DNA from: Polyangiales bacterium
GTDB lineage: Bacteria > Myxococcota_A > Polyangia > Polyangiales > Ga0077539
DNA: 64,000 nt
Direction of reading: 5' to 3'
NCBI GenBank assembly: GCA_044229975.1
Contig: JBGARZ010000013.1
Location: 1 to 64,000, forward strand
The notes under the pieces were generated by a model. That model was not told the DNA's origin, searched no databases, and saw only the letters and a program-made list of their open reading frames with translations. This document shows positions 41,580-63,885 of the stretch, in pieces. Within the stretch, counting starts at the first letter, position 1. Every line of letters begins with the position of its first letter. The position numbers were made by a program, and so were the translations under genes.

Positions 41580-43166
41580 ATGAGCGCGTTGGCCACCTGG
41601 GAAGCCTCCTCCGAGGCACCGGTCTTCCTCCCGGCAGAGCTGCCCGGTGCGGTGCGCCGAGTGCGCGAGACGGTGCACATCGTCCGTGATCCCGGCGGGC
41701 GTCTCGGCCTCGCCTTCGGAGGAACCACCGGCCGCGGAACGTACCCGCTCGTCGCGACGCTGCCGCCGATGTTCCCGGAGTGGTTGGGCGATCGGGCCTT
41801 CGTCGAGGCCCACGGTCTGCGCTTCCCCTACGTGACCGGCGAGATGGCCAACGGCATCGCGACCGTGCGCATGGCGCTCGAAGCAGGCCGCGCTGGAATG
41901 CTCGGCTTCTTCGGCGCCGCGGGCCTCTCGTTCGAACGTGTCGAAGCGTCGGTGACCGAGCTCGCGCGCGAGGCGGCGGGGAAGTTTCCGTGGGGCGTCA
42001 ACCTCATCCACTCGCCCAACGAGCCCGCGTTGGAAGAGCGCGTCGCGGCCCTGCTCATCGAGCGCGACGTGAAGCTGGTCTCCGCGTCGGCCTTCATGGG
42101 TCTCACGCCCGCCGTCGTGCGGCTCGCCTATGCGGGCGTTCGCACCGACGCATCGGGAACGGTCGTTCGTCCGCGCACCCTCTTCGCCAAGATCTCGCGC
42201 GCCGAAGTCGCGCGACGCTTCCTCGCACCGGCGCCCGCGGACATGGTTCGGGCGCTCGTCGCGAAGGGATGGCTCACCGAAGCCGAAGCGGCGCTCGCGG
42301 CGCGCTTGCCCGTCGCCGAGGTGCTCACCGTCGAAGCCGACAGCGGCGGCCACACCGACAACCAGTGCCTCACCGCGCTCCTGCCGACGATGCTGCTGGT
42401 GCGCGACGAGCTCGTCGCCAGGCACGAGTACACGCGGCCCATCCACGTCGGCGCGGCGGGCGGCATCGGGACGCCGTCGGGCGTCGCGGCGGCGTTGCAG
42501 CTCGGCGCGGCCTTCGTGATGACCGGCTCGGTCAACCAGGCGGCCGTGGAGTCGGGCCTGTCCGAGTCGGGCAAGCAGCTCCTCGCGCTGGCCGACATCC
42601 CCGACGTGGCGATGTGCCCGGCGGCGGACATGTTCGAGCTCGGGGTGCAGGTGCAGGTGCTCAAGCGGGGAACGATGTTCGCCGCGCGCGCGCAGAAGCT
42701 CTACGACGCGTATCGCGCGTACGACTCGCTCGACGCCATCCCGGCGGATGTGCGGGCGCGCATCGAGAAGGACACCCTGCGCGCGAGCTGCGACGAGGTG
42801 TGGGCCGAGTGCGAGCGCTTCTGGTCGCGGCGCGATCCCCACGAGCTGGAGCGCGGGCGCACCGACCCCAAGCACAAGATGGCGCTGGTGTTTCGCTGGT
42901 ACCTCGGCAAGGCCAGCCGGTGGGCCATCGAGGGCGATGCGACGCGCGTCGCCGACTACCAGATCTGGTGCGGCCCCGTGATGGGCGCCTTCAACCGCTG
43001 GGCGGCGGGCACCTTCCTCGCCGAACCCAGGAACCGCACCGTCGCGCAGATCGGCCGCAACCTCCTCGAAGGGGCGGCGGTCATCACGCGCGTGCAGCAG
43101 CTACGAGCGTGCGGGGTGTCCGTCCCCGCCGTGGCCTTCGACTTCCGACCGCGACGTCTCGCTTGA
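41580..43166 (+). CDS. pfa1: PUFA synthase enoyl reductase (PfaD/Pfa1)
   Basis: GEMANGIA, VNLIHSP, SASAFM, EADSGGHTD, PAADMFELGV, DYQIWCGP. Confidence 0.96.
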   Translation: MSALATWEASSEAPVFLPAELPGAVRRVRETVHIVRDPGGRLGLAFGGTTGRGTYPLVATLPPMFPEWLGDRAFVEAHGLRFPYVTGEMANGIATVRMALEAGRAGMLGFFGAAGLSFERVEASVTELAREAAGKFPWGVNLIHSPNEPALEERVAALLIERDVKLVSASAFMGLTPAVVRLAYAGVRTDASGTVVRPRTLFAKISRAEVARRFLAPAPADMVRALVAKGWLTEAEAALAARLPVAEVLTVEADSGGHTDNQCLTALLPTMLLVRDELVARHEYTRPIHVGAAGGIGTPSGVAAALQLGAAFVMTGSVNQAAVESGLSESGKQLLALADIPDVAMCPAADMFELGVQVQVLKRGTMFAARAQKLYDAYRAYDSLDAIPADVRARIEKDTLRASCDEVWAECERFWSRRDPHELERGRTDPKHKMALVFRWYLGKASRWAIEGDATRVADYQIWCGPVMGAFNRWAAGTFLAEPRNRTVAQIGRNLLEGAAVITRVQQLRACGVSVPAVAFDFRPRRLA

Positions 43167-43179
43167 ACAAGGACCTCCG

Positions 43180-46100
43180 ATGACCACCCGCCACCAGATT
43201 CCCATCGCCGTCGTCGGCATGGGCGCGCTGCTCCCCGGATCGACCGACCTCGCCGGAGCCTGGCGCGACATCGTCACCGGCAAGGACCTCTTGAGCGATG
43301 TTCCGCCCGGTCACTGGCTGATCGAGGACTACTACGACGCCGACCCCCACGCGCCCGACAAGACCTACGCGAAGCGCGGCGGCTTTCTCCCCGATGTGCC
43401 CTTCGACCCGATGGAGTTCGGTGTCCCGCCGTCCATCGTCCCGGCGACGGACACCGCGCAACTGCTCGCGCTGATGGTGGCGCAGCGCACGCTCGAAGAC
43501 GCGACCGGCGGCGACATCGCCTCGCTCGACAAGGAGCGCGTCTCGACGCTCATGGGCGTCACCAGCGCGCAGGAGTTGTTGGGTGAGATGAACAGCCGCC
43601 TCCAGCGCCCGGTGTGGGTGAAGGCGCTGCGCGAGGCGGGTCTCGGTGAGACCGAGGTGCAGTCCATCTGCGACCGCATCAGCGCCAGCTATGTTCCGTG
43701 GCAGGAGTCGTCCTTCCCTGGGTTGTTGGGCAACGTGGTGGCAGGGCGCATCGCCAACCGCTTCGACCTGCGCGGCACCAACGCCGTCACCGACGCGGCC
43801 TGCGCGAGCTCGCTCGCGGCGCTGTCCATGGGCATCAACGAGCTTCAGCTCGGCCAGGCCGACCTCGTCCTCGGCGGCGGCGTCGACACCATGAACGACA
43901 TCTTCATGTTCATGTGCTTCTCCAAGACGCCTGCGTTGTCGGCGTCTGGTGACTGCCGCCCGTTCTCCGACGCCGCCGACGGAACGATGCTGGGCGAGGG
44001 CCTGGTGATGTTCGCGCTCATGCGTCTCGACGACGCCGAGAAGCAGGGCAAGCGCATCTACGCCGTCATCAAGGGCGTCGGCTCTTCCTCCGACGGTCGC
44101 GCCAAGAGCGTGTACGCGCCCGTTCCCGAGGGTCAGGCGCGGGCGCTGCGGCGCACGTACGAAGTGGCTGGCTACGGCCCCGAGACGGTGGAGCTCGTCG
44201 AGGCCCACGGCACCGGAACCAAGGCGGGCGACGCCGCGGAGTTCGAGGGTCTCGCGACGGTGTTCGGGGAGGCGAAGAAGGGCCCCGCGTGGTGCGCGCT
44301 CGGCTCCATCAAGTCGCAGATCGGCCACACCAAGTCGGCCGCCGGCGCCGCGGGTCTGATGAAGGCCGTGCTCGCGCTGCACCACAAGGTGCTGCCGCCC
44401 ACCATCAAGATCGATCGCCCCAACCCCAAGATGGGCCTGGAGACCAGCGCGTTCTATCTCAACACCCAGAGCCGCCCGTGGATTCGCGACGCGTCGCACC
44501 CGCGGCGCGCGTCGGTGTCGAGCTTCGGCTTCGGCGGCAGCAACTTCCACGTCGCGCTGGAGGAGTACGTCGGACCCGGCAAGCGCCCCGCGCGCAGCTC
44601 GACGCGCCCGACGGAGCTGTTCATCTTCTCGGCGGCGACACCCGCGGCAGTGGTCGCAGCAGCCAAGAGCTTCGCGAGCGTCGAGGGTGACCTCGCGCTG
44701 CGTGCGCGGGAGAGCCGGGCGAGCTTCAAGGCAGCCGAGCCGTCGCGCTTGTCGGTGGTGGCCTCGTCGCTGGCCGATCTGCTCGCGCAGGTCGAAGCGT
44801 CGGCGGAAGCCATCGCGAAGGGCGCGGCGCTGTCGACCCCGGCGGGTCTGACCTTCACCGACGGCGCGACCAGCGGGTCGGTGGGCTTCCTCTTCCCCGG
44901 ACAGGGATCGCAGTACGTCGGCATGGGCGCCGACGTGGCCATGGAGTTCGACGCCGCGCGCGACGCGTGGGACCGCTCGGCCGCCCTGCGCTTCGACGGC
45001 AAGACGCTGCACGAGATGGTGTTTGCGCAGCCGGTGTTCAGCGACGAGGCGCGCGAGGCGCAGCAGGTCGCGCTGACGGCGACGGAGTGGGCGCAGCCTG
45101 CGATCGGTGCGGCGAGCCTGGCGCTGTTGGGCGTGTTGCGCGCGCTGGGCGTGAAGCCCGACGCGGTCGCGGGTCACTCGTACGGCGAGGTGACGGCCCT
45201 GCACGCGGCGGGTGTGCTCGACGAGGCGGCGTTTGTCGGCGTGTCGCGCAAGCGCGGCGAGCTGATGCGCGACGCCGCGTCGACGACGGCGGGCGCGATG
45301 ACGGCGGTGGTGGCGAAGGCCGAGGAGCTGCGGCCGCTCATGGCGCAGTGGGGCCTCGACGTGGTGCTCGCCAACCACAACGGGCCGAAGCAGGCGGTGC
45401 TGTCGGGTCCGACGGCGGCCATCGCGGCGGCCGAGGAGAAGCTCACCGCGGCCAAGATCGGCTTCAAGCGGCTCGGGGTCGCGACGGCGTTTCACAGCTC
45501 GGTGGTGGCGGCGTCGTGTGTTCCGTTTGGCGAGCACCTCGCGACGGTGGACTTCGGTGCGCCCGCGATGCCCGTGTACGGCAACGCGTCGGCGGCGCCG
45601 TACCCCACGGATGCGAAGTCGATGCGCGCGATTCTCGGCGGGCAGATCGCCCAGCCGGTGCGCTTCGTCGAGGAGATCGAGGCGATGTACGCGGCGGGGG
45701 TTCGCACCTTCGTCGAGGTGGGTCCGTCGGCGGTGCTCACTGACCTCGTGGGGCGCATCCTCAAGGGGCGCCCGCACCTCGCCATCGCGCTCGACCGCAA
45801 GGGCAAGCACGGCGTGACCGCCCTGCAAGAGTCCCTCGGTCGCCTCGCGGTGGCGGGCGTGAAGCTCGACTTCGTGGGCCTGGAGGGTGAAGTGCCCGCG
45901 GCGCCGAAGGCGAAGAAGAAGCCCGCGATGACGCTGTCGCTCAACGGCTCCAACTACGCCAAGCCGTATCCGCCGAAGGGCGGCGCGGCGGAGCTGCCGA
46001 AGCCCAACCCCGAGCGTCAGCCCGAGGTGATTCGCATCGTGGAGCGGGTGGAAGTGCCCGTGGAGGTTCCGGTGGCCGCGAGCGCGGCGCCGGTGGGCGA

Positions 46101-49100
46101 CGACGTGCAGCACGCGTGGGTGCGCGCGTACCAGGACATGCAGCGCCAGACGGCCGACGCGCACGCGTCGTATCAGCGGGCGACGGCGGACTCGCACGCG
46201 GCGTTCTTGCGGGCGGCCGAGACGTCGATGTCGACGCTTGCGACCATGTTGACGGGTGTTGCGACAGCCCATCCGGTCCCTGCGACGTACAGCCCACCCG
46301 TTGCGATGCAGGCACAGCCCGTTGCGGCGCCCTCCCAGGTCATTGTTGCGCCTGTCCGGCCCGTTGTTGCGCCCTCCCAGGCGGCTGTTGCGCCCGTGCA
46401 ACCCGTTGCGACGCCCGTTCAACCGGTTGCGGCGCAGGCGAAGCCCGCTGCGGTGGCCGTCGACCTCGAGAAACTCATGATGGAGATCGTCGCCGAGAAG
46501 ACGGGCTACCCCGTCGCGATGCTCGCCGTCTCCATGGAGCTCGAAGCCGACCTCGGCATCGACTCCATCAAGCGCGTCGAGATCCTCTCCACGATGCGCG
46601 AGCGCGCTCCCGGCCTCGGCGAAGTGAACCCCAATGAGCTCGCCAAGCTCCGCACGCTCGGTCAGATCGTCGACCACATGCGCGGGCGCCTCGGCAGCGT
46701 CGCAGCGGCAGCTCCTGTCGCAGCAGCGGCTCCCGCCGTGGATCTTGAGAAGCTGATGATGGAGATCGTCGCCGAGAAGACGGGCTACCCCGTGGCGATG
46801 CTGGGCGTTCAGATGGAGCTGGAGGCCGACCTGGGCATCGACTCCATCAAGCGCGTGGAGATTCTCTCCACGATGCGTGAGCGCGCGCCGGGTCTGGGTG
46901 AGGTCAATCCCAACGAGCTCGCCAAGCTGCGGACGCTCGGGCAGATCGTCGATCACATGCGCGGCACCCTCGGTGCGGCGGCGCCCAAGGCGGCTCCGGT
47001 CGCGGCGGCTCCGGCCGTCGATCTGGAGAAGCTGATGATGGAGATCGTCGCGGAGAAGACGGGCTACCCCGTCGCGATGCTCGGCCTCTCCATGGAGCTC
47101 GAAGCCGACCTCGGCATCGACTCCATCAAGCGCGTCGAGATCCTCTCGACGATGCGCGAGCGCGCGCCGGGTCTCGGCGAAGTGAACCCCAACGAGCTCG
47201 CCAAGCTCCGCACGCTCGGACAGATCGTCGATCACATGCGCGGCAGCTCGGCGGCCCCGGCCGCGACGACGACCGCGACGGCAACCGTGACGAAGGCGGC
47301 GCCCATCCGGCGGCTGGCGGTGCGATCGCGGGCGGTTGTTCGGCCGGGCGTCGCGGTGGCGGGCCTGCTCGGCGCGCGCAAGCTCGTGGTGACCTCGGAC
47401 GGCGGCGCGCTCGCGGGCCTCGTGGTCGCGCGACTCGCGGCGGCGGGCGTGGCGGCGGAGCTGGTGACCGACGTCCCCGCGGACGCAGACGCCGCGGTGC
47501 TGCTGGGCGGGATGCGCGCGGTGACGACGCGCGACGAGGCGCTGGCGGTGCATCGCGAGGCGTTCCGCGCGGCGCGGGCGGTGGCGGCGAAGTTCACGGC
47601 GAGGGGGGGGCTCTTCGTGACGGTGCAGGACACCGGCGGCGACTTCGGCCTGTCGGGTCGATCGCCCCTGCGCGCCTGGACGGCGGGCGTCGCGGCGCTC
47701 GCTCGCACCGCGGCCCGCGAGTGGCCCAAGGCGCACGTTCGGGCGCTCGACGTGGAGCGCGCGACGCGCAGCGACGCGGAGGTGGCGCAGGTCATCGTCG
47801 ACGAGCTGCTGCTGGGCGGTTCGTGCGTCGAAGTGGGCCTCGGCGCGGACGGCTCACGCGTGACGCTCGACTCGGTGGAAGCACCCGTCGACGGAACGCC
47901 CGTCACCCTCGACGCGACCTCCGTGGTGCTCGCCTCGGGCGGAGCGCGCGGTGTCACGGCGGCCTCGCTGGAGGCGCTGGCGAAGGCCACGAAGGCGACG
48001 ATGGTGCTGCTCGGTCGCACCGCGCTCGCGGACGAAGGCGCGGCGACCAAGGGCGCGCGCGACGAGGCGGGGCTCAAGCGGGCGCTGCTCGAAGACGCCG
48101 CCGCCAGGGGCGCGAAGGTGACCCCGGCGGAGGTCGGCGCGAAGGCGCAGGCGATCCTGGCGACGCGCGAGGTGCGCGCGACGATGGCGTCGATGGAGGC
48201 GGCCGGGTCGAAGGTTCGCTACCTCGCGGTGGACGTGCAGGACGCGGCGAAGCTCGCGGCGGCGCTCGACGGCGTGCGGAAGGACTTCGGTCCCATCACG
48301 GCGCTGGTGCACGGCGCGGGCGTGCTCGCGGACAAGCTGCTCGCCGAGAAGACCGATGCGCAGTTCGATCGGGTGTTCGACACGAAGGTGCTGGGCCTCG
48401 CGGCGCTGCTCGACGCGACGGCGGGTGATCCGCTGCGGTCGATCGAGCTGTTCTCGTCGGTGGCGGCGCGCGCGGGCAACCCGGGCCAGTCGGACTACGC
48501 GATGGCCAACGAGGTGCTCAACGCCGTCGCGTGCGCCGAGCGGGCGAAGCGGCCGGGCTGCGCCGTGTCGTCGGTGGGCTGGGGGCCGTGGGAGGGCGGC
48601 ATGGTCACGTCGTCGCTCAAGGCGCACTTCGAGAAGGCGGGCGTGACGTTGGTTCCGCTCGCGACGGGGGCGCGCATCTTCATCGACGAGCTCACGCACC
48701 GCGCGACGGACGGCGTGCTGGTGGTGGGCGCCACGGCGGGCGACGACGCGCTGGGCGTGAGCGGCGAGCGCGTGAGCGAGACCGAGGTGCTGGTGAGCGC
48801 GAAGACGCACCCCGAGGTGGGCGATCACCGCATCGCGGGCGCGCCGGTGCTGCCGGTGGCGCTGGCGGTGGAGTTTCTCGTGCGCGGCGCGGCGGACTTC
48901 GCGGGCGGCGGACGGCCCCTCGCGGTGCGCGACGTGAAGGTGCTGCGCGGCGTGCGGCTGGAGCACTACGACGGACGCGGTGATCGGTTGGTGGTGCGCG
49001 CTCGCGTGGCGGGCGACGTCATCGCGGTGGAGCTGCGCGGGCCCAACGACGCATTGCACTACTCGGCGCTGGTGGACGCACGGGATGACGCCACGCCGCT

Positions 49101-49581
49101 CGCGCTCGGGCGCAACCCGGCGGGGCTCACGCCGTGGGTCGCGCGGGCGGAGATCTACGACGGGCACGTGCTCTTCCATGGGCCGCGGTTCCAGGTGATC
49201 CGCGGGGTGGATGGGGTGTCGGACGAGGGGCTCGTGGCGCGGGTCGAAGGGCTCGTCGCGCGCGGCTGGACCTCGGACGACTTCCGCACCGATCCGGCGG
49301 TGACCGACGGCGCGCTCCAGGCCGCGGTGCTCTGGGCGGAGGGTCCGCTCGGTGGGGCGGCGTTGCCGATGTCCGTCGGGGCGATGCGCCTCGCGGGGCC
49401 GGGGCCGGCGAGCAGCGAGCTGCGGGCGACGGTGCGGGCGCGCTCGGTGAGCGGGGCGCGCGCGACGTGCGACGTGTTCGTGACGGGCGCGGACGGCGAG
49501 ACGTTTGCGGTGCTCGAAGAGGTGGCGCTGGTGCAGCGGCCCGGAGAGCCCGGTCGCGCGGTAACTCCGGCAGCGGTCTAG
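43180..49581 (+). CDS. pfa2: PUFA synthase Pfa2 (PfaA-like): KS-MAT-ACPx3-KR-DH
   Basis: DAACASS, EAHGTGT, GHTK; GHSYG; three LGIDSIKRVEIL; GGARGVT..YAMAN; DHRIAGAPVLP. Confidence 0.95.
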   Translation: MTTRHQIPIAVVGMGALLPGSTDLAGAWRDIVTGKDLLSDVPPGHWLIEDYYDADPHAPDKTYAKRGGFLPDVPFDPMEFGVPPSIVPATDTAQLLALMVAQRTLEDATGGDIASLDKERVSTLMGVTSAQELLGEMNSRLQRPVWVKALREAGLGETEVQSICDRISASYVPWQESSFPGLLGNVVAGRIANRFDLRGTNAVTDAACASSLAALSMGINELQLGQADLVLGGGVDTMNDIFMFMCFSKTPALSASGDCRPFSDAADGTMLGEGLVMFALMRLDDAEKQGKRIYAVIKGVGSSSDGRAKSVYAPVPEGQARALRRTYEVAGYGPETVELVEAHGTGTKAGDAAEFEGLATVFGEAKKGPAWCALGSIKSQIGHTKSAAGAAGLMKAVLALHHKVLPPTIKIDRPNPKMGLETSAFYLNTQSRPWIRDASHPRRASVSSFGFGGSNFHVALEEYVGPGKRPARSSTRPTELFIFSAATPAAVVAAAKSFASVEGDLALRARESRASFKAAEPSRLSVVASSLADLLAQVEASAEAIAKGAALSTPAGLTFTDGATSGSVGFLFPGQGSQYVGMGADVAMEFDAARDAWDRSAALRFDGKTLHEMVFAQPVFSDEAREAQQVALTATEWAQPAIGAASLALLGVLRALGVKPDAVAGHSYGEVTALHAAGVLDEAAFVGVSRKRGELMRDAASTTAGAMTAVVAKAEELRPLMAQWGLDVVLANHNGPKQAVLSGPTAAIAAAEEKLTAAKIGFKRLGVATAFHSSVVAASCVPFGEHLATVDFGAPAMPVYGNASAAPYPTDAKSMRAILGGQIAQPVRFVEEIEAMYAAGVRTFVEVGPSAVLTDLVGRILKGRPHLAIALDRKGKHGVTALQESLGRLAVAGVKLDFVGLEGEVPAAPKAKKKPAMTLSLNGSNYAKPYPPKGGAAELPKPNPERQPEVIRIVERVEVPVEVPVAASAAPVGDDVQHAWVRAYQDMQRQTADAHASYQRATADSHAAFLRAAETSMSTLATMLTGVATAHPVPATYSPPVAMQAQPVAAPSQVIVAPVRPVVAPSQAAVAPVQPVATPVQPVAAQAKPAAVAVDLEKLMMEIVAEKTGYPVAMLAVSMELEADLGIDSIKRVEILSTMRERAPGLGEVNPNELAKLRTLGQIVDHMRGRLGSVAAAAPVAAAAPAVDLEKLMMEIVAEKTGYPVAMLGVQMELEADLGIDSIKRVEILSTMRERAPGLGEVNPNELAKLRTLGQIVDHMRGTLGAAAPKAAPVAAAPAVDLEKLMMEIVAEKTGYPVAMLGLSMELEADLGIDSIKRVEILSTMRERAPGLGEVNPNELAKLRTLGQIVDHMRGSSAAPAATTTATATVTKAAPIRRLAVRSRAVVRPGVAVAGLLGARKLVVTSDGGALAGLVVARLAAAGVAAELVTDVPADADAAVLLGGMRAVTTRDEALAVHREAFRAARAVAAKFTARGGLFVTVQDTGGDFGLSGRSPLRAWTAGVAALARTAAREWPKAHVRALDVERATRSDAEVAQVIVDELLLGGSCVEVGLGADGSRVTLDSVEAPVDGTPVTLDATSVVLASGGARGVTAASLEALAKATKATMVLLGRTALADEGAATKGARDEAGLKRALLEDAAARGAKVTPAEVGAKAQAILATREVRATMASMEAAGSKVRYLAVDVQDAAKLAAALDGVRKDFGPITALVHGAGVLADKLLAEKTDAQFDRVFDTKVLGLAALLDATAGDPLRSIELFSSVAARAGNPGQSDYAMANEVLNAVACAERAKRPGCAVSSVGWGPWEGGMVTSSLKAHFEKAGVTLVPLATGARIFIDELTHRATDGVLVVGATAGDDALGVSGERVSETEVLVSAKTHPEVGDHRIAGAPVLPVALAVEFLVRGAADFAGGGRPLAVRDVKVLRGVRLEHYDGRGDRLVVRARVAGDVIAVELRGPNDALHYSALVDARDDATPLALGRNPAGLTPWVARAEIYDGHVLFHGPRFQVIRGVDGVSDEGLVARVEGLVARGWTSDDFRTDPAVTDGALQAAVLWAEGPLGGAALPMSVGAMRLAGPGPASSELRATVRARSVSGARATCDVFVTGADGETFAVLEEVALVQRPGEPGRAVTPAAV
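46255..46440 (+). repeat. Degenerate 21-bp tandem repeats in the pfa2 linker
   Basis: PVAAPSQ/VIVAPVR/PVVAPSQ/AAVAPVQ/PVATPVQ with recurrent GTTGCG. Confidence 0.6.
46455..47245 (+). repeat. Three near-identical ACP-coding direct repeats
   Basis: VDLEKLMMEIVAEKTGYP...QIVDHMRG x3. Confidence 0.95.
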
Positions 49582-49634
49582 TGCCTTGGCACAAGGGATG
49601 TGACGTGTTGGGGCCGTTGGTTCTGCGAGGGTTG

Positions 49635-49795
49635 GCCGCAAGGGCGCAAGGGTCGCAAGGGAGTGATCCTGGGATGCGGTCTCGTGCTCCCCATGGCCTG
49701 AGATCAAACCTCTCCGCGCCACATTTCGTGATCCCGCTGAAAACGGGTCATCGCCTGACCCTCACTCCTCCTTGCGACCCTTGCGCCCTTGCGGC
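49635..49795. repeat. REP-like inverted repeat between pfa2 and pfa3
   Basis: GCCGCAAGGGCGCAAGGGTCGCAAGG..GAGTGA versus TCACTC..CCTTGCGACCCTTGCGCCCTTGCGGC. Confidence 0.85.
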
Positions 49796-49853
49796 TGATT
49801 TCCTGCGGCCACTGCCCCAAACCTTCATGTCCCCCGTGGAACGGTACTAGTCG

Positions 49854-55800: not shown

Positions 55801-58439
55801 TCGAGAATCAAGCCGGCCTGCCCACCACCGACGAAGAGCGCGCCCGCCTCGCGTCGCCGAACACCCTCGACGTCGACCTCACCACGCGTCCTGCGCGCTA
55901 CTGCGGAAGCGCTCCGCGGCTGGCGGGCCCGATGTTGTTGATGCTCGACCGGGTGACGGCCTTCGACCCGACGGGCGGCAAGAAGGGCCTCGGTTGGTTG
56001 CGCGCCGAGAAGGACGTCGACGCGGCGGAGTGGTTCTTCAAGGCGCACTTCTTCCAGGACCCGGTGCAGCCCGGATCGCTCGGCATCGAGGCGCTCGCGC
56101 AGCTCATCCAGTTCTTCATGCTGGAGACGGGCATGGCGGCCGACGTCGTTCATCCGCGCTTCGAGGCGCTGATGACGGGCCGACCGCTCGCGTGGAAGTA
56201 CCGCGGCCAGGTCGTCCCCAAGAACAAGCTCATCCAGAGCGACATCGAGATCGTCGAAGTGGGACGCGACGCGCTCGGCCCGTACGCGGTCGCCGACTGC
56301 TCACTGTGGGTCGACGGCAAGCGCATCTATCAAGCGCGCAACTTCGGCATGCGCATCGTCGCGGGTGATCCGCCGCCGAGCCGCGAAGAGACGCTCGACC
56401 CCGCGCGCGACACCTGGCTCAACGACCATCGCCCGACGTGGACCGTCCCCGCGCTGCCGATGATGTCCATGGTCGATCGGCTCGCCTCCGTCGACACCCA
56501 GCCCGCGACGGTCATCCGCGACGTTCGCGCGCTGCGCTGGCTCGCCTTCGCGGGTGGTCCGCAGAGGCTGCGCGTCGAGCACACCGGCGATGCCACGCGT
56601 CTGCTCGCGTGGCGTGACGCCGCCAACCCAGCGCTCTCCCGCTTCGAGCCCGTCGCGGAAGGCATCGTCTCCCACGAGCCCGTCGGCGCCGCGCCCGTCG
56701 CCTGGGCGCCGCTCGCCGATGCCGTCGATGAGGGCGATCCCTACGAGTCCGGTCGCCTCTTCCACGGTCCGTCGTTCCGGTGTGTCACCTCGTGGCGCCT
56801 CGGTCCCACGGGCGCCTCTGCCGTCGTCGACGCGGCCCGCTGCACCGTCCCGCGCGGAACGCTCCACCAGGGTCTCCTCGACGCGATGACCCACGCCATC
56901 CCGCACGACTCGCTCTGGCGCTGGTCGTCGGAGATCCCGCGCGACGTCGCGGCGTACCCGCACCGCGTCGCCGAGCTGCGCCTCTTCGCCCCGCTGCCCG
57001 ACGTCGGAACCCTCCGTATCGAAGCCCGCTTCGACGGCTTCGATGGTGACCCGCGCTTCCCCGTGACCGACGTTCAGCTCATCGCGGGCGATCGTGTTCT
57101 CGCGACGATGCGCCTCGTCGAAGTGCTGCTCCCCAAAGGGTCGCTCGGCGTCACCGAGCCGCTCGCCCGCCGCGCCTTCCTCGAAGGCCATGCGATGCCC
57201 GGCGTCTCCATGTCGCGCGTCGACGGCGCCGTCACCACGCTCGACGACGCCGAGCTGCGCACCCTCGACTGGCTGCCCAACACGGTCGCGCGCATCTATC
57301 ACCTCGACCGCCCCGCCGACGCCACCGCCGACGTCGCGGTGAAGGAGCACGTCGCCCGCGCGGCCTTCGTCCACCCCGCCACGGTGCGCGTCGCCTACGA
57401 CGGTGGCTTCGCCGCGGTGCGCCCGTTTCGCAAGCACCCGGTGACGGTCACCCGCGACGGATCGCGCGTCGCCGTGCGCGACGCCGCGCCGCCCATCAAT
57501 GACTTCAGCGCCCCCAAGCGCTTCTGGCGCGAGCGCCTCAACACCAACGGCTGGCTCGCGGAGGACATCTTCTTCGGGCTCATCGACCGCTTCGTCGGCG
57601 ACGTGGTCATCACCGACCCGGCGGGCTTCGCGACGCTGCGCGGACGACCGTGCCTCTTCCTGGCCAACCACCAGATCGGCATCGAGTCGCTGCTCTTCTC
57701 GCTGCTCATCACCTCGCTCACGGACACCACGCTCGTCACGGTGGCCAAGGCCGAGCACCGCACCACCTGGATCGGTCGGCTCATCGCGAGCTCGTTCTCG
57801 CGGCCAGGGCTCGTCGACCCGGGGGTCATCACCTTCTTCGACCGCGACGACCCGTCGTCGCTCCAGACCATCGCGCGCACGCTCGGCGAAGACCTGCTCG
57901 CGGGCCGCCGCAACGCGCTCATCCACGTCGAGGGCACGCGCTCGCTCGCCGCCCGCCACGAGGTGCTGAAGATCGGCTCGACCTTCCTCGACCTCGCCGT
58001 CGCCACCGGAACGCTCATCGTCCCGGTTCGCTTCGCGGGCGCGCTGCCGGTGGAGCCGCTCACCGCGCGCACCGACTTCCCCGTCGGGTTTGGCCGCCAG
58101 GACTACTGGGTCGGCCCGGCCATTCCGCCGGAGGTCATCGCGGCCATTCCCTTGAAGGAACGTCGTGACTTCGTGCGCGCGGCCATCAACCAGCTCGGTC
58201 CGCCGCTGGCCGAGGAGGTTCCGCACGCGCCCGACCCCGCGCTCGAAGCGTCCATCGAGTCGCTGCGCCTCGCGACGGGAGCGCCCCTCGCCGCCGCCGT
58301 GTTGCGCCGCCTGCTGGAGCAGGTCGGCGATATCTCGGACGAGGCGCGCGTCGTGCTCGCGGGCGGTCCGTTCGCCGACACTCCCGACGGCAGGTGGCTC
58401 GCGCACTTCGCGCAGCTCGTCGCACCGGAGAAGCTGTGA
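49854..58439 (+). CDS. pfa3: PUFA synthase Pfa3: KS-CLF-AT-DH'/DH-DH'/DH-PKS-type DH-AGPAT
   Basis: DAACASS/ECHATGT/GHL; GYSSG; GHFKNDPCMPGTL; AHFFQDPVQPGSLG; DHRPTWTVPALP; NHQIGIES and HVEGTRS acyltransferase motifs. Confidence 0.94.
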   Translation: MPFEPIAVVGRSCVLPGALDPTALWNNVRAGRDLVAPAPEGRWSLPRNDAMGTTASHADRTWTDAGGYVTGFDAVFDPTGFRVAADEVRALDAVFRWTLHGVREALRSAKREGTATTGLVMGNLSFPSASMAAYAEHLWLVDQGLATGAGPHPRNRFTSGMPALYAAKALGLGAGALALDAACASSLYAIKLACDRLQAREVDTMVAGAVSAADDLFIHIGFCALSAMSRTGRSRPFDKAADGLVPAEGAAFVVLRRLSDAVRDGDTILGVIRGVGLSNDGRGRGLLAPSEEGQVRAMRAAWASAGLAPSDVGLVECHATGTPVGDAVEVHSMAEVFAGARDVPIGSLKSNLGHLITAAGAAGLLKVIAAMEAGERPPTLHADDAIDALAGTPFRLLREPERWMGPKRATVSAFGFGGNNAHLIVEAFDGASPAIATRTTKPAAVAIVGIGARVGSGDGRGDFVRTLMSGRVDDQARESVVVDAEGLRFPPKDLEKTHAQQLMVLEAAREAAAVGGLDRETTAVIVGMGTDPAVARHGARWRLGARTAGAEGVDATWIAQAKDALAPTLEAAGVVGTMPNMPANRVCSQLDLGGMGFTVSAEEGSGLAALRIAAHALRAGEIDAALVGAVDLSHDLVHAAALHALGVDRPSGDAAVVLTLRRLDDARADGQPVLAVLDEGDGEAVETVGLFGHAHAATSLVDVAAAALAVGHGFRFGAGTAGRAWLGERKARVETTVLDGANASVTLRGDGAVPLFTAGALVLRVYSGGDRAAVAQALAAGRESSAGPARLVLVGTSEEMPARVEAAQRALAGGGAMPEGAAFGERAVGGDVASVFTGAAAGYVGMGRDLTLAFPALVEKLGRRSSGVIAATRWAFDGGDKHPLDQLWGTTYLCQLHALLVSDVFGLKPRATLGYSSGETNALFAAHLWNDFDAMMSASREAPLFKDDLCGEFRACRTLWGLPDGRWQAYSVVAPVERVREALAGEANAHLTIINAPDECVIGGESLALARVVAKLGGERCFPMDYEMAAHCPEIGVVRDAWWSLHHRAVTPANGLRFYSNGTGHSFAPTSDAVADAITAQAVHTLDLPRTIVKMWEDGVRVFIEHGPRGACSGWIKKILGAREHIAVPLDLAGRNGVRQAAQALAALIAAGVDVDASGFLAAVERAATPTKVAGRALTFAAHPKAVRFPPRAEGERMEPAPALPSMLADLLARPPRPVTDAEVVEATEMVAAVAKPAAVTVSAPTMVAPKGRASVEALAHLAAFQGQLATMHRAMIEEQAAQHERFLDFRQRSEAQLLAMMGSPPGAPTHAPASVLTRRDEPAHVPERAETATRSLPSAPLRVRPVIADVLEPTPAVASTPVALPGPKFDRAQLEVLAGGKISSVFGPLFEAQDGFHRQVRMPMPPLLFADRVTGIDAVAGSMKLGTIWTETDVRADAWYLGPDGRMPGGVMIESGQADLLLISWLGVDLLNQSERVYRLLGCELTYHGELPRAGDTLVYDIHIDGHANQGPIRLFFFHYDCRVNGELRLSVRHGQAGFFTDAELADSGGILWSPDDSAPAADARLDAPPRLTERRRFSHEQLVAFSEGRTHECFGPGFEATLAHVATPRIAPGRLLFPQEVVAFDPTGGPWQRGYLRAEQAIHADDWYFEGHFKNDPCMPGTLMFEGCLATMAFHLAALGFTIDRDGWRFEPVTELKYLMRCRGQVTRTSRKLTYEVFVSEVHDGPLPTLYADLLCTVDGLKAFHARRVGMRLIPAWPLDHWESLSTHREQETGEPVALASLGGLAGHVDTGRVASVDGFSFGYASLIACAWGRPSRAFGPFYERFDSTRRVARLPGPPYHFMSRITDLDAPMGALVAGGSIACEYDVPASVWYFAENGAPVMPLAVLMEAALQPCGWFASYIGSALTTDVDLLFRNLDGTGTMHRDLTPGSGPLRTKVKLKSVSRTAGMIIVSFLVSCSQNGDAVYDMDTVFGFFPKEAFENQAGLPTTDEERARLASPNTLDVDLTTRPARYCGSAPRLAGPMLLMLDRVTAFDPTGGKKGLGWLRAEKDVDAAEWFFKAHFFQDPVQPGSLGIEALAQLIQFFMLETGMAADVVHPRFEALMTGRPLAWKYRGQVVPKNKLIQSDIEIVEVGRDALGPYAVADCSLWVDGKRIYQARNFGMRIVAGDPPPSREETLDPARDTWLNDHRPTWTVPALPMMSMVDRLASVDTQPATVIRDVRALRWLAFAGGPQRLRVEHTGDATRLLAWRDAANPALSRFEPVAEGIVSHEPVGAAPVAWAPLADAVDEGDPYESGRLFHGPSFRCVTSWRLGPTGASAVVDAARCTVPRGTLHQGLLDAMTHAIPHDSLWRWSSEIPRDVAAYPHRVAELRLFAPLPDVGTLRIEARFDGFDGDPRFPVTDVQLIAGDRVLATMRLVEVLLPKGSLGVTEPLARRAFLEGHAMPGVSMSRVDGAVTTLDDAELRTLDWLPNTVARIYHLDRPADATADVAVKEHVARAAFVHPATVRVAYDGGFAAVRPFRKHPVTVTRDGSRVAVRDAAPPINDFSAPKRFWRERLNTNGWLAEDIFFGLIDRFVGDVVITDPAGFATLRGRPCLFLANHQIGIESLLFSLLITSLTDTTLVTVAKAEHRTTWIGRLIASSFSRPGLVDPGVITFFDRDDPSSLQTIARTLGEDLLAGRRNALIHVEGTRSLAARHEVLKIGSTFLDLAVATGTLIVPVRFAGALPVEPLTARTDFPVGFGRQDYWVGPAIPPEVIAAIPLKERRDFVRAAINQLGPPLAEEVPHAPDPALEASIESLRLATGAPLAAAVLRRLLEQVGDISDEARVVLAGGPFADTPDGRWLAHFAQLVAPEKL
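53797..53892. repeat. Palindromic element inside the pfa3 linker
   Basis: CCTTACCCG...CGGGTAAGG inverted ends; related sequence at ~24524-24550. Confidence 0.55.
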
Positions 58440-58448
58440 ACCACCGTT

Positions 58449-58705
58449 CGCCGTGCGCCGGGGTTCACCGTGCAGGCTCCGGATCCATCGCGCGCGGTTC
58501 ACCCCGGGCAATGGTAGGGGGTCACCCCATCGCTCCGCGACGGGGTTACAGGAGGGATCCTTCCCGGCTCCTGATGCCCCCCACTTCCAACGATCGCACT
58601 TGCTGCAGCCCCGTCGCGAAGCGATGGGGTGACCCCCTACCATTGCCCGGCGTGAACCGCGCGCGATGGACCCGGAGCCTGCACGGTGAACCCCGGCGCA
58701 CGGCG
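58449..58705. repeat. Long inverted-repeat element, subfamily A
   Basis: ~103-bp arms (58449-58551 and 58603-58705) with about five mismatches and a 51-bp loop. Confidence 0.93.
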
Positions 58706-58716
58706 CAAGGACAACC

Positions 58717-61700
58717 ATGACCCACCGCCCATTCCGTCGCGTCGGCGTCGTCAACCGCGCCGAGGCCGCCACCCGCTTTCTCCGCGGCGCCCGCGCCTGG
58801 TCGCTGCTCCACGACCTCCCCCTCGAAGTCGTCGCCTTCTACACCGACCCCGACGCGGGCGCTCCGTTCGTGCGTGACGCCGACGCCGAGGTCGCCCTCG
58901 GTCCCGCCATGGTCGCCGCGCCCGATGGGCGACGCCGATCGGCCTACCTCGACATCCCCACCATCGTCGCGCGCCTCGTCGAGAGCGGCTGCGACGCCGT
59001 CTGGCCCGGCTGGGGCTTCCTCAGCGAAAACCCCGCCTTCGTCGACGCCGTCACCGCCGCAGGCATCGTCTTCATCGGACCGCCCGCCGAAGCCATGCGC
59101 CGCCTCGGCGACAAGATCGCCGCCAAGCGCCTCGCCGAAGCCAACGGCGTCCCCGTCACCCCGTGGAGCCACGGCCCCGTCGCGGACGCCGCCGAAGCGA
59201 AGCGCCACGCCGAGCGCATCGGCTACCCCGTTCTCGTCAAAGCCGTCGCAGGCGGCGGCGGGCGTGGCATCCGCGTCGTCACTGATCCCACGCAGCTCGA
59301 AGCGGCCTTCCGCAGCGCCTCCGACGAAGCCCGCGCTGCTTTCGGTGATGCGTCATTGCTCGTCGAGGCGCTGCTCCCCGAGGCGCGCCACGTCGAGGTG
59401 CAGGTGCTCGCCGACGCCCACGGCAACGTGCACGCCGTCGGAACGCGCGACTGCTCCATGCAGCGCCGCCACCAGAAGGTCATCGAGGAAGGCCCCGCGC
59501 CGTTGCTCCCCGCCGCCACGCTCGACGGCGTGTGCCGCAGCGCCGTCGCGGTCGCCCGCGCGAGCGGGTACGTCAACGCAGGCACGGCGGAGTTTCTCGT
59601 CACGCCCGACGGCGAGCGCTTCGTCTTCCTCGAAATGAACACCCGCCTCCAGGTGGAGCACCCCGTCACCGAGTGCACCACCGGCCTCGACCTCGTCGGC
59701 GCGCAGATCGACGTCGCCATGGGCGCCCGCATCGAGAGCACTCCCCCGACGCGCGGGCACGCCATCGAGGTGCGCCTCAACGCCGAAGACCCGGAGCACA
59801 ACTTCGCGCCCAGCGCCGGTCGCCTGCACCGCTTCGATCTCCCGCACGGGCCGGGCGTCCGCGTCGACTCCGGCTTCGAGGCGGGCGGGACCGTTCCCAC
59901 CGAGTTCGACTCCATGCTCGCGAAGCTCATCGTCACGGGCGCCACCCGCGACGAGGCCCTCGCGCGCCTCGCCGACGCCCTCACGCGCACCACCATCGCC
60001 ATCGAGGGCGGAGCGTCCAACCGCGCGCTGCTGCTCGACCTCGTGCGCTCGCCCGAGTTCCGCCGCGGCCCGGTCACCACCCGATGGCTCGACCGCTGGG
60101 TCAACGAGCGGCCCTCTGGGCTCGACCGCGCGGGCGCCGCCGTCGCCCTCGTCGCGGGCGCCATCATCGAGTGCGAGCACGTCCGCCGACGCCACGTCGT
60201 CAACTTCCTCCGGCAGGCGCGCGGCAGCGGCGTCCCCACCAGCGCGCCCGTCTCCGAGCCCCGCGGCGTGCGCTTCACCGTCGACGGAACCAGCGTCGCC
60301 CTGGAGGTCGCCACCATCGGCCCGCGCCGCTTCCGCGTGAGCGACGGCAGCGGCGCCGTCGAGGCCCGCTTCGAGTTCACCGACCGCTCCACCGGGACGC
60401 TCACCGTCGCTGGACGGCGTCATCGTGTGGTGGTCGTTCGTAGCGCGCGCGAGCTCTCCATCGAGGTCGACGGCGTGGCGCACAGCCTCCGCCGCGCTTC
60501 GGACGGCCGCGTCGTCGCGCCGCTCCCTGCCGTGGTCGCTGGGGTCGACGTGAAGGCCGGAGAGTCCGTCACGGCCGGCCAGCGTCTCGCGACGCTGGAG
60601 GTGATGAAGATGGAGTTCGCGGTGGAGTCGCCCGTCGACGGCGTGGTGACCCGCGTGCTCGTGGATCAGGGCGTTCACGTCAGCGCGGGGGATGCCATCG
60701 CCTTCGTGGTGGCTGCGCGCGACAGCATGTCCATCGCCGCACCCGACGTGCTCAAGCCCGTCGCCGGTCGCCGGCCCGCCGACGACTGGGGCGACCCCGT
60801 CGCCGTCCTGCGCGGAACCCTCCTCGGCTACGAGCTCCCCGCCCCGGCCGTCACCGCCGCGCTCGCTGCGCTGCGCGACCACGGCGCGACCTTCCCCCTC
60901 GCCCGCCTGCTCGACCTGCTGGAGGTCCACGTCGCGCGCGAGGCCCTCTTCGACCGCGCCCTCCTCGCCGACGGAACGGCCGCCGTCGACGCCTTCGCCG
61001 AGTACCTCCGCCTGCCCGTGAGGGACGGTCTCGTCGAGGGCTTCGAGCCGCTGCTGGTGCGTGCGCTCGCCTGCTACGAGGTCCGCTCGCTCGCTGTCAC
61101 GCCCATCCTGGAGAGCGCGCTCCTGCGCATCGCTCAAGCGCGCCGCGCCCGTGACGACCACGGCGTCATCCTCCTCGCCGCTCTCTCGGCGCTCGACCGC
61201 CTCGCCGACGCGGGCGCCACCGACGACACCGCGCGCGCCCTCTTCGAGCGCCTCTCGACGCTCGAAGCCGCCCGCAACCCGCGCCTCGCCGACGCCGCGT
61301 GGACAGCAGCCTACCTGCTCTGCGACCGCGTCGACCACGTCGACCCGACGCCGCTCGCGCCCGGCCCCGAGCTCCACGAGGAGCTGGGCCGACTGTCACT
61401 CTTCGACCTCACATGGATTCCGTCCGCGACCGGCGCCCGCGTCGCCCTCGCCCGCGCGCACTCCGACCCCGGTGACGCGCGGCTGATCGGGTTCGTCCAG
61501 CTCCAGCGCTTGCCCGCGCCGGGTGAAGACCTCGACCGCTGCTACCTGGAGACGGTTCATACGCTGCGACGGACGGTGAGCGCGCCGGAGCAGCTCGGCG
61601 TGAAGCTGGGCGGCGCACGACTGCTGGTGGCCTTCAACGATCCGCTGCCGACCGACCGCGGGCCCTTCGAAGAGGCCGCCCGCGCGCTGGCCGCACCCGC

Positions 61701-63552
61701 CACGGGCCTCGGCCTGGAGGTGCTGGTGCTGCGCGGATCGACCCCCGACGGACGCCGCGTTGCGGGCCGTTGGACGGCGCCGAGCGGTCACGGCGGAGCG
61801 CTCGCCATCGGCGACCCCGACCCGACGCCGGTGCGCCCGGTGGGTGCGTACGAACGACGGGTGTTCGACGCGCGTCGGCGCGGTGGCTTCGTCCCGCACG
61901 AGCTCTTCCGCGTGCTGGCGCGCGAGGACGCCGACGGTCCGCTGCCTCCCGGTCGCTTCGTCGAGCTCGACCTCGACGCCTCGGGCGCGCTCGTGGCCGT
62001 CGATCGCGGCCGCGGCGAAAACACCGCCAACCTGCTCGTGGGCCGCGTGGTCAACCGCTATGCGCCCTTCGAGGACGGCCTCACGCGCGTTCTCATCGTC
62101 GGCGACCCGGGTCGCGCGATGGGCTCGCTCGCCGAGCCCGAGTGCCGTCGCATCGTGGCGGCGTTTGATCTCGCAGAGCGCGAGGGCCTGCCCGTCGAGT
62201 GGATCCCGGTGTCGTCGGGCGCGAAGATCGCCATGGACAGCGGCACCGAGAACCTCGACTGGACCGCGCGGGTGCTCGCTCGCATCGTCCACTTCACGCA
62301 GCGCGGCGGCACCGTGCACGTGCTCGTCGACGGCGTGTGCGTCGGCGCGCAGAGCTACTGGAACGCCGAAGCCACCATGCTCCAGCACTGCCGCGGCGCG
62401 CTGTTGATGACGCCCCGCGGGGCGATGCTGCTGACGGGCAAGCGCGCGCTGGAGCTCGCCGGGTCGGTGTCAGCGGAGGACAACCTCGCCATTGGCGGCT
62501 TCGAGCGGGTGATGGGCCCCAACGGCGAGGCGCAGTACTTCGCGGCCGACATCGTGTCGGCCTACCGAACGCTCTTCCGCCTCTACACCTTCACGCACGT
62601 GATGCCCGGAGAGCGATCGCCGCGCCGGCTCACGACGAGTGATCCGGTGACGCGAGACTTTGGTACGGCGCCGTACGAACCCGCGGCCGACGGGTTTACG
62701 CGGGTGGGAGAGATCTTCGACGAGGCGAGCAACCCGGGGCGCAAGCGACCGTTCGCGATTCGCCCGGTGCTGCGTGCGGTGCTCGATCAGGACCACGAGC
62801 CGCTGGAGCGCTGGGCCCCGATGGAGGGCGCCGAGAGCGCGGTGGTGTTCGACGGCTCGCTCGGTGGGGTTCCGGTGACGTGCATCGGCGTGGAGTCGCG
62901 GCCGGTGCGACGGCGCGGAGAAGCGGCGCCCGATGGTCCGTCGCAGTGGACGGCGGGGACGCTGTTTCCGCTGTCGTCGAAGAAGGTGGCGCGCGCGCTC
63001 AACGCGGCGTCGGGCGTGCGGCCCGCGGTGGTGCTGGCCAACCTGTCGGGCTTCGACGGGTCGCCGGAGTCGCTGCGCGAGTTGCAGCTGGAGTACGGCG
63101 CGGAGATCGGGCGCGCGGTGGTGAACTTCCGCGGGCGGCTGATCTTCTGCGTGATCTCGCGCTACCACGGCGGGGCGTACGTGGTGTTCTCGCGGGCGCT
63201 CAACGAGGGGTTGGATGCGATGGCGCTGTCGGGCTCGTACGCGAGCGTGATCGGCGGGGCGCCGGCGGCGGAGGTGGTGTTCCCGGGCGTGGTGCGGAAG
63301 AGGGCGGCGGCCGATCGGGACGTGGTGGCGGCGCGGGCGCTGCTGGAGGTGGGGACGGACGCCGAGCAGGCCGCGGCGCTGCTGCGCTACGAGCAGGCGC
63401 TGAAGGAGGCGACGATGCGCGAGCGGGCCGCGGTGGCGCGCGAGTTCGACGCGGTGCACACGGTGGAGCGCGCGAGGGACGTCGGGTCGATCGGCGCGAT
63501 CGTGGGCGCGGCGGGGCTGCGCGAGGAGCTGGCGCGGCGCATCGGGGGGTGA
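58717..63552 (+). CDS. Single-chain multidomain acyl-CoA carboxylase (biotin carboxylase-BCCP-carboxyltransferase)
   Basis: NRAEAA, WPGWGFLSEN, GGGGRGIR, RDCSMQRRHQK, EMNTRLQVEH; EVMKME; SSGAKIAMDSG, LANLSGFDGSPES. Confidence 0.92.
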   Translation: MTHRPFRRVGVVNRAEAATRFLRGARAWSLLHDLPLEVVAFYTDPDAGAPFVRDADAEVALGPAMVAAPDGRRRSAYLDIPTIVARLVESGCDAVWPGWGFLSENPAFVDAVTAAGIVFIGPPAEAMRRLGDKIAAKRLAEANGVPVTPWSHGPVADAAEAKRHAERIGYPVLVKAVAGGGGRGIRVVTDPTQLEAAFRSASDEARAAFGDASLLVEALLPEARHVEVQVLADAHGNVHAVGTRDCSMQRRHQKVIEEGPAPLLPAATLDGVCRSAVAVARASGYVNAGTAEFLVTPDGERFVFLEMNTRLQVEHPVTECTTGLDLVGAQIDVAMGARIESTPPTRGHAIEVRLNAEDPEHNFAPSAGRLHRFDLPHGPGVRVDSGFEAGGTVPTEFDSMLAKLIVTGATRDEALARLADALTRTTIAIEGGASNRALLLDLVRSPEFRRGPVTTRWLDRWVNERPSGLDRAGAAVALVAGAIIECEHVRRRHVVNFLRQARGSGVPTSAPVSEPRGVRFTVDGTSVALEVATIGPRRFRVSDGSGAVEARFEFTDRSTGTLTVAGRRHRVVVVRSARELSIEVDGVAHSLRRASDGRVVAPLPAVVAGVDVKAGESVTAGQRLATLEVMKMEFAVESPVDGVVTRVLVDQGVHVSAGDAIAFVVAARDSMSIAAPDVLKPVAGRRPADDWGDPVAVLRGTLLGYELPAPAVTAALAALRDHGATFPLARLLDLLEVHVAREALFDRALLADGTAAVDAFAEYLRLPVRDGLVEGFEPLLVRALACYEVRSLAVTPILESALLRIAQARRARDDHGVILLAALSALDRLADAGATDDTARALFERLSTLEAARNPRLADAAWTAAYLLCDRVDHVDPTPLAPGPELHEELGRLSLFDLTWIPSATGARVALARAHSDPGDARLIGFVQLQRLPAPGEDLDRCYLETVHTLRRTVSAPEQLGVKLGGARLLVAFNDPLPTDRGPFEEAARALAAPATGLGLEVLVLRGSTPDGRRVAGRWTAPSGHGGALAIGDPDPTPVRPVGAYERRVFDARRRGGFVPHELFRVLAREDADGPLPPGRFVELDLDASGALVAVDRGRGENTANLLVGRVVNRYAPFEDGLTRVLIVGDPGRAMGSLAEPECRRIVAAFDLAEREGLPVEWIPVSSGAKIAMDSGTENLDWTARVLARIVHFTQRGGTVHVLVDGVCVGAQSYWNAEATMLQHCRGALLMTPRGAMLLTGKRALELAGSVSAEDNLAIGGFERVMGPNGEAQYFAADIVSAYRTLFRLYTFTHVMPGERSPRRLTTSDPVTRDFGTAPYEPAADGFTRVGEIFDEASNPGRKRPFAIRPVLRAVLDQDHEPLERWAPMEGAESAVVFDGSLGGVPVTCIGVESRPVRRRGEAAPDGPSQWTAGTLFPLSSKKVARALNAASGVRPAVVLANLSGFDGSPESLRELQLEYGAEIGRAVVNFRGRLIFCVISRYHGGAYVVFSRALNEGLDAMALSGSYASVIGGAPAAEVVFPGVVRKRAAADRDVVAARALLEVGTDAEQAAALLRYEQALKEATMRERAAVAREFDAVHTVERARDVGSIGAIVGAAGLREELARRIGG

Positions 63553-63885
63553 TGAAGGGTGGAGGAGCGGAGCACGCTGAGACGGCACCCTTCTCGGAAA
63601 GGCCACCCGGCCGATGGGTCCAACGATACGCCCTTGTCGGCGCGAGTCCGCGCGGGTTTTCAGACCGCCTTCTTGCGCGTGGTTCCCACCTCGTGGCCGC
63701 TCCCAGAGCTCCCTAACATCGCCCGGGCGACCATCACGCTGACGCGATCTGCAAAGCCCTACGTGGCTCGGCATGGATCGTGACGAGTTCGCCGCGCTAG
63801 TGACCCTGTTGGTCGGGCTGACTCAACGCGAATCCGATTGTGTTGTGGTTTAGGATGCGTGACGTTGGCTACACGTGATGCCGTC

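Follow-up and report, generated by a model that had tools for sequence, protein, structure and literature searches.

The polyunsaturated fatty acid (PUFA) synthases Pfa1-Pfa2-Pfa3 of Minicystis rosea, Aetherobacter and Sorangium, assigned to Type L by Shulse and Allen, consist of an enoyl reductase (ER), a KS-MAT-ACPn-KR-DH protein and a KS-CLF-AT-FabA DHs-AGPAT protein, with the phosphopantetheinyl transferase (PPTase) encoded at a separate locus (PMC8436480, PMC6731297). A further domain, DH4, sets Minicystis Pfa3 apart from Aetherobacter Pfa3 (PMC6731297). Single-chain acetyl-CoA carboxylases (ACCs) are likewise known from bacteria: SACE_4237 of Saccharopolyspora erythraea, described by Livieri et al., is a dimeric enzyme of ~200 kDa that makes malonyl-CoA, takes both acetyl- and propionyl-CoA (kcat/Km 0.85 vs 0.52 for propionyl-CoA) and is the essential housekeeping ACC, and the sole one, of its host (PMC6491548). 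A pairing of the two kinds of enzyme was noted in 2011 by Shulse and Allen, who found an ACC gene between pfaA and pfaE in the Type R pfa-like cluster of Koribacter versatilis (PMC3098273).

Here we describe a locus in which a Type L synthase is followed by a carboxylase gene. The window, a stretch of 64,000 nucleotides from a Polyangiales bacterium (assembly GCA_044229975.1, contig JBGARZ010000013.1, positions 1 to 64,000), carries pfa1-pfa2-pfa3 and, on the same strand and across a palindrome, a gene for a 1611-aa fusion of biotin carboxylase (BC), biotin carrier (BCCP) and carboxyltransferase (CT) domains, just as an earlier note on this DNA had reported (Table 1). What that note had missed is that the central region of the carboxylase is unusually short, and that a second inserted element lies between pfa2 and pfa3. 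We consider it probable that the four genes form one operon, in which the compact carboxylase would supply malonyl-CoA to Pfa1-3.

Table 1. Features of the locus, with positions in the window.
Feature	Position	Strand	Evidence or detail
pfa1, PfaD-type enoyl reductase, 528 aa	41580..43166	+	TIGR02814 PfaD, 609 bits vs cut-off 449
pfa2, KS1-MAT-3xACP-KR-DH1, 2133 aa	43180..49581	+	TIGR02813 PfaA, 1566 bits vs cut-off 1010
Inserted repeat element, 26-nt inverted arms	49583..49846	.	CTAGT duplication at 49578-49582 and 49847-49851
pfa3, KS2-CLF-AT2-four FabA-like DH/DH' stretches-DH4-like-AGPAT, 2861 aa	49854..58439	+	Domain search; residue His2192
Palindromic dispersed repeat, arms 58444-58551 and 58603-58710	58444..58712	.	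AACCA flanks at 58439-58443 and 58713-58717
Compact single-chain acyl-CoA carboxylase of 1611 aa, homologous to SACE_4237	58717..63552	+	BC, biotin carrier and carboxyltransferase domains
Biotin carboxylase domain	58732..60099	+	K133, K175, H252, K254, E292, E306, N308, R310, E314, R353 present
Biotin carrier domain, EVMKM with Lys631	60505..60714	+	Domain search, motif
Compact central region, AC1/AC2-like helical part and AC5-like alpha/beta domain	60784..61851	+	Alignments, models
Carboxyltransferase, eukaryotic-ACC type	61864..63549	+	SSGAKI, VGAQSY, YHGGAYV; Val1489 at PccB Asp422 position

To judge by their sequences, the first three genes encode a PUFA synthase that is complete and of the myxobacterial type, resembling that of Minicystis in having DH4. 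They stand in the Type L order, with the ER in pfa1, KS-MAT-ACPn-KR-DH in pfa2 and KS-CLF-(AT)-DHs in pfa3, the CLF being a CLF-like second KS, and the KS triads, three ACP serines, KR tyrosine and AGPAT motifs are all intact. The C-terminus of Pfa3 carries the fused AGPAT domain (PF01553 at residues 2597-2727, with NHQ and EGTRS motifs), and between it and the last FabA stretch lies the DH4-like segment, which resembles polyketide synthase-type dehydratases and is placed as in M. rosea (PMC6731297); its PS-DH match is weak (E 0.009), that of the homolog at locus L275 being E 8e-8. We count the three ACPs of Pfa2 as a difference from the known myxobacterial Pfa1-3, with the product of the window synthase a prediction. 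The other difference is the carboxylase gene after pfa3; a word count gave no 'carboxylase' in PMC8436480 or PMC6731297. As in the described systems the PPTase is encoded elsewhere, in line with the earlier note, which had found none in the window. PF01648 matched twice in the genome, a HetI/Sfp-like gene (below the NCBIfam cut-off) on contig C20 and AcpS on contig C38.

The carboxylase is, on sequence grounds, a compact derivative of the SACE_4237-type multidomain ACC rather than a typical member of it. With SACE_4237 it shares the single-chain BC-BCCP-central-CT order, homology from end to end and a CT of the eukaryotic ACC group; what it lacks is the complete ACC central region of a ~200 kDa protein, being ~200 aa shorter with the equivalent of AC3 and AC4 missing. 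It also differs from SACE_4237 in being tied to a PUFA synthase, in being found outside Actinobacteria and in probably being accessory to a canonical AccABCD. The identities were obtained with a close Saccharopolyspora ortholog (genome G323) whose N-terminus matches the SACE_4237 primer, not with SACE_4237 itself. None of 30 Saccharopolyspora genomes contained the exact primer, and a one-mismatch match in 1/5 yielded this ortholog. They amount to 40% over residues 6-882 and 48% over residues 889-1609 of the window protein, and to 51% for BC and 55% for CT. The BC residues listed in Table 1 we take to be the equivalents of the E. coli AccC catalytic residues. The catalytic motifs are intact, and the window protein is predicted to be a dimer that carboxylates acetyl-CoA, as SACE_4237 does, with propionyl-CoA as a possible further substrate.

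The eukaryote-like character that the earlier note had ascribed to the carboxylase was borne out. All 20 PDB sequence matches of the central and CT part were eukaryotic ACCs, as were all top fold matches listed for the predicted model (pLDDT 88, pTM 0.87), headed by the yeast and human enzymes; yeast Acc1 (PDB 5csk/5csl) and human ACC1 have homologous central parts and CT. LCC, another single-chain bacterial acyl-CoA carboxylase, was absent from the 20 matches; it is a hexamer without an ACC central region and with a CT of another group (PMC6491548), whereas the central region of the window protein is homologous to the yeast AC domains and its CT lies outside the LCC group. The single-chain family itself is common, accounting for 596/600 among the GTDB pattern matches listed and present in 72/301 genomes of the order; the nearest named homolog of the window protein is L029, from a Myxococcales metagenome-assembled genome.

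The central region comprises 380 residues in the window carboxylase compared with 570-663 in 99/101 full-length homologs, a deletion of ~200 aa relative to the long forms. A linker of ~12 residues (61330-61365) joins the helical AC1/AC2-like part directly to a single AC5-like alpha/beta domain; in the predicted long-form model the helical part is followed by further short helices and two alpha/beta domains. AC domains were assigned from a profile of 70 long forms aligned to yeast Acc1 and from the two predicted models, with a yeast numbering offset of 21 inferred from Tyr1113 and Arg1260. On this basis the missing part likely matches yeast residues ~1035-1295, that is AC3/CDL and AC4/CDC1 with Tyr1113, the Ser1157 loop and Arg1260, in a protein of 1611 aa vs ~2230 aa for Acc1; it begins where the AC3-AC5 construct 5cs4 begins and includes AC4. 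The Ser1157 loop sits in AC4 of yeast Acc1 (PMC5126230, PMC4833862). Since the loop region is already much shorter in the long bacterial forms of the profile alignment, the compact form gives no ground for claiming that phosphoregulation was lost.

The same junction was found in five database proteins, P0001-P0005 (1601-1656 aa), with 44-51% identity in the central region, open frames and conserved catalytic motifs, and contigs of runs X2, X6 and X11, from close strains, span it without a large insertion. Because the gap is common to these five homologs and the close strains, an assembly artefact as its cause was ruled out. The compact form is rare: only one 50%-identity representative aligned across the whole central region at E <1e-30, none of 252 metagenome stretches found in a scan with the central alignment of P0001-P0005 was confirmed, and in 400 genomes of the phylum no other protein of the P0001-P0005 clade turned up at a comparable score. 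The same or a near-identical loss was seen in other branches of the carboxylase tree, namely L275/L199, L197 and seven proteins of ~1690-1710 aa. Shortened single-chain carboxylases of ~1690-1710 aa, a second such group, are encoded at L160-L162, L198, L200, L201, L206 and L207; L160 and L162 have a separate carboxyltransferase gene upstream and L160 also an enoyl-CoA hydratase gene downstream, which may mean another metabolic role.

The linkage of carboxylase to pfa3 on which the earlier note had built its four-gene module held within the genus, where it looks like an operon, and failed as a rule elsewhere. The carboxylase lies directly after pfa3 in 8/9 genus genomes, the window's own counted, and in the seven relatives among them the pfa3 stop overlaps the carboxylase start (TGATG) or the gap is at most 10 nt; in the ninth, G006, no match for pfa1, pfa3 or CT was found. 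Across the order, pfaD and a single-chain CT occurred together in 14/301 genomes, and in 0/6 of those outside the genus was the carboxylase linked to pfa3, so that a general rule for myxobacterial-type pfa clusters is ruled out (the tally scored three candidates per genome, and its 96 pfaD-positive genomes include the unpublished G132). Of 80 metagenomic pfa3 loci fetched, we retained the 65 that included the 3' end plus 600 nt or more beyond it and dropped 15; a carboxylase follows pfa3 in six of them, five falling in the genus clade and the sixth, L275, being a distant and separate case.

Carboxylases of this family also stand behind other large synthases. Of 80 GTDB loci fetched, 64 were evaluable (16 dropped), and in 43 of these the gene directly upstream of the carboxylase-family gene is a Type R PfaA-like one; a PPTase was found in 14/32 downstream open reading frames scanned (72 extracted). 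The Type R PfaA-like gene, single-chain ACC and PPTase make up a widespread three-gene unit (L021-L100, L136-L171), observed in Acidobacteria, in part of the Actinobacteria and, within the window's order, in several families. What the window has in common with the Koribacter Type R cluster is a Pfa-like iterative synthase gene with an ACC gene directly after it. It differs in having a three-gene Type L synthase with no PPTase gene following, instead of one PfaA-like gene with (an ACC gene and) a PPTase gene behind it, and in that its compact carboxylase belongs to a different branch from those linked to Type R.

A third partner is a 3450-aa fatty acid synthase of fungal/mycobacterial type (type I, hence FAS-I; PF08354), present in 17/30 genomes of the family and two other genomes of the order and not found in the window's genome. 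It usually lies ~430-450 nt upstream of the single-chain ACC gene (L129:8726-19090, L120:8594-18943, L128:852-11204, L134, L135, L139, L197), and the two constitute a eukaryote-style pair outside Actinobacteria. Four genus genomes (G002, G003, G004 and G008) have two carboxylase copies each, one behind pfa3 and one behind the 3450-aa FAS-I, the paralogs being 74-75% identical in the three genomes compared; canonical accA is present in 28/31 family genomes, all four among them. Other fatty-acid neighbours were a KS-III gene upstream (L065, L071, L072), a FabF-like gene upstream (L031) and an acyltransferase (FabD-like) gene downstream (L029). At L131 (G020:C6:199309-210603) the single-chain ACC gene follows a pyridoxal phosphate-dependent decarboxylase gene, with a second, CT-only copy ~4 kb downstream.

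The history of the block is reflected in its identities. Compared with the genus relatives, Pfa1 is 65-66%, Pfa2 60-66%, Pfa3 ~57% and the carboxylase ~58% identical, and AccA (81-87%) and FabF (82-85%) of the same genome are closer; among the relatives themselves Pfa2 and Pfa3 are 81-84% identical to each other (two or three compared). The joint drop of all four genes to 57-66% is as expected if the block moved as a unit. None of the six flanking genes of the window had a match in nine relative loci. In carboxylase trees (FastTree, midpoint root, subsets of 62 and 61 sequences) the window protein grouped with P0001-P0005, the long forms of the family being the sister group. The pfa-linked carboxylases of the relatives formed a separate clade, next to the FAS-I-linked copies or among them, and direct orthology between these pfa-linked carboxylases and the window protein is not supported by the trees. 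Given these separate placements the link to pfa appears at three places, which both repeated gain and repeated loss would fit. The window's own Pfa3 falls, in the Pfa3 tree, among homologs lacking a neighbouring carboxylase.

Two insertions now interrupt the tightly packed genes. In the 277-nt gap between pfa3 and the carboxylase gene lies an inverted repeat whose 108-nt arms are 94% complementary and whose RNA fold has z = -23, reached by 0/200 shuffles. This palindrome, mentioned in the earlier note, is a recent insertion and no part of the module, with 14 near-full-length copies in the genome (this one included), missing in all seven genus relatives and from the contigs of runs X6 and X11 (~92-94% identical), which pass from 58320 to 58714 with 112 other letters. 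A dispersed repeat absent from close strains is ruled out as a conserved regulator of the module. Deleting it together with one AACCA copy leaves the pfa3 stop, 3 nt and the carboxylase start. A search of 41000-64000 against Rfam returned no match, and 58300-58900 gave no hit to either the sigma-70 or the terminator consensus. The element between pfa2 and pfa3, equally a recent insertion, belongs to a family with 176 arm copies and 68 convergent pairs genome-wide. The empty site is seen in a related strain, where a contig of run X3 passes from 49577 straight to 49847; with this and its 5-bp CTAGT duplication the element resembles a miniature inverted-repeat transposable element. Contigs from close strains at ~92-94% identity have neither insertion.

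Put together, the reading we favour is that a compact single-chain carboxylase, predicted to be a dimer, converts acetyl-CoA to malonyl-CoA for the adjacent Pfa1-3, which would build predicted C20-C22 PUFAs that the AGPAT domain of Pfa3 could pass to lysophosphatidic acid. The carboxylase would act as an auxiliary, co-regulated source of malonyl-CoA on top of the housekeeping AccABCD, and the Sfp/HetI-like PPTase from the other contig would activate the ACPs in trans. More generally the family may serve as an accessory module behind whichever large synthase is present, be it Type R PfaA, FAS-I or Pfa1-3. In favour of the reading, the range of products that myxobacterial PUFA synthases form in yeast hosts has been associated with the malonyl-CoA level (PMC13063552). 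Several observations weigh against it. The carboxylase was missing behind pfa3 in all ten other pfa3-bearing genomes of the taxonomic family, within the 1.5 kb read, and at 59/65 of the metagenomic loci, L216 and L289 with the nearest Pfa3 relatives of the window being included; since most pfa1-3 clusters have no adjoining carboxylase, it is not required for PUFA synthesis. Canonical accA, accC and accD over the cut-off and an accB-like open reading frame are present elsewhere in the genome, and the window carboxylase is therefore probably not the sole ACC. In the window's strain the 108-bp hairpin may now uncouple the carboxylase gene from pfa3, and the enzyme may, as SACE_4237 does, also take propionyl-CoA as a side substrate.

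With a good deal more reserve, and at somewhat less than even chances, we propose that the compact protein is an active minimal eukaryote-type ACC that works without CDL/AC3 and CDC1/AC4, two of the four central subdomains, through a new coupling of its two active sites, and that the family is a plug-in malonyl-CoA module attached in several independent events (at three points of the tree to Pfa1-3, and also to FAS-I and to Type R PfaA), where it would set the yield or chain spectrum of the co-translated PUFA synthase.

The carboxylase could instead be an active but general-purpose malonyl-CoA source that is not specially coupled to the synthase, its place next to pfa3 being due to the clustering and joint movement of mobile lipid genes. 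We regard this as unlikely, though it is the strongest of the alternatives: SACE_4237 does perform the housekeeping role in its host, 21/64 evaluable GTDB loci have no PfaA-like gene upstream, linkage of the carboxylase is patchy on the Pfa3 tree, and the two genomes of genus g7, carriers of the single-chain carboxylase, gave no accA. However, overlapping pfa3 stops and carboxylase starts speak against it, as does the retention of one paralog behind each of two synthases in the four genomes that keep accA. A related candidate, that the carboxylase replaces a missing ACC or type II fatty acid synthase (FAS II), was ruled out, as accA, accC, accD, fabF and acpP all pass their cut-offs elsewhere in the genome, with a fabG-like gene beside them just below its own.

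We think it very improbable that the compact carboxylase is inactive or decaying, with the loss of AC3 and AC4 stopping the biotin carrier from reaching both active sites. The hinges around CDL/CDC1 have been proposed to be necessary for substrate transfer in fungal ACC (PMC4833862), and the rarity of the compact form would suit a failing enzyme, but the junction has persisted through five homologs with open frames and conserved catalytic motifs, is crossed by contigs of three runs, has counterparts in other branches of the tree and gives a confident model.

Least probable of all is that the carboxylase makes methylmalonyl-CoA or another extender, loaded by Pfa2 to give a branched or otherwise new polyunsaturated lipid, the earlier note having raised a non-malonyl extender and a new lipid as a possibility: the propionyl-CoA use of SACE_4237, a Cys in the motif before GAQ in the compact clade vs Asn in the long forms, and the D422/I420 position being an important but not the sole determinant of specificity (PMC7835884) leave it some room, but the motifs of both AT and CT are of the malonyl/acetyl type and no tailoring or extender genes flank the cluster. 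Specifically, the MAT of Pfa2 has GHSYG and TAFH, and the relatives TAFH and GHSFG; xAFH is the motif of malonyl-specific ATs, and GHSQG and YASH are those of methylmalonyl-specific ones (PMC4207774). In the CT, the residue after GGAY, Asp422 in PccB, is Val1489; Val stands there in 122/126 family sequences, including FAS-I-linked and Saccharopolyspora homologs, and the propionyl-CoA carboxylase beta subunit of the window's own genome has Asp. Malonyl-CoA is thus the expected product of the carboxylase as read from its motifs, and that of the synthase is likely an ordinary PUFA.

Beyond the probable operon, the carboxylase gene is directly followed by genes for an N6/N4 DNA methylase, a GmrSD-like (GmrSD-N) protein and a HEPN protein (window 63838-64000; L174:3839-7407), likely a defence island. 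Elsewhere the window encodes a 1534-aa protein with 23 Stig1-like repeats (3317-7921), an Hcp-like domain protein (35239-36228) and an XhoI-like endonuclease fragment (36277-37170). A protein of at least 1728 aa at L179:3791-8974 (G000:C13, minus strand) combines fatty acyl-AMP ligase, flavin oxidoreductase, ACP and acyltransferase, the last 37% identical to the AGPAT of Pfa3, and is possibly a lipid-tailoring fusion.

PUFA synthases and single-chain ACCs are known kinds of enzyme, and a similar pairing has been published for Type R. A literature search, with most subscription journals outside its scope, returned no carboxylase in a pfa1-3 cluster and no ACC without AC3 and AC4, so that the pairing with Pfa1-3, the pattern of one paralog per synthase with FAS-I and the compact enzyme are new as far as we found. 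About a third of eukaryotic ACC is central domain, with hinges believed to serve in regulation and substrate transfer (PMC4833862, PMC5126230). An enzyme of 1611 aa that naturally lacks AC3 and AC4, a trait shared by homologs of only ~50% central identity, allows a direct test of which central parts catalysis needs, and the window carboxylase would be a naturally miniaturised version of an enzyme with a poorly understood central region. If active, it would give PUFA and polyketide production a small malonyl-CoA supply encoded by one gene. Finally, the paralogs behind pfa3 and FAS-I would represent eukaryote-style operons of ACC and megasynthase outside Actinobacteria, which bears on the origin of eukaryotic ACC.

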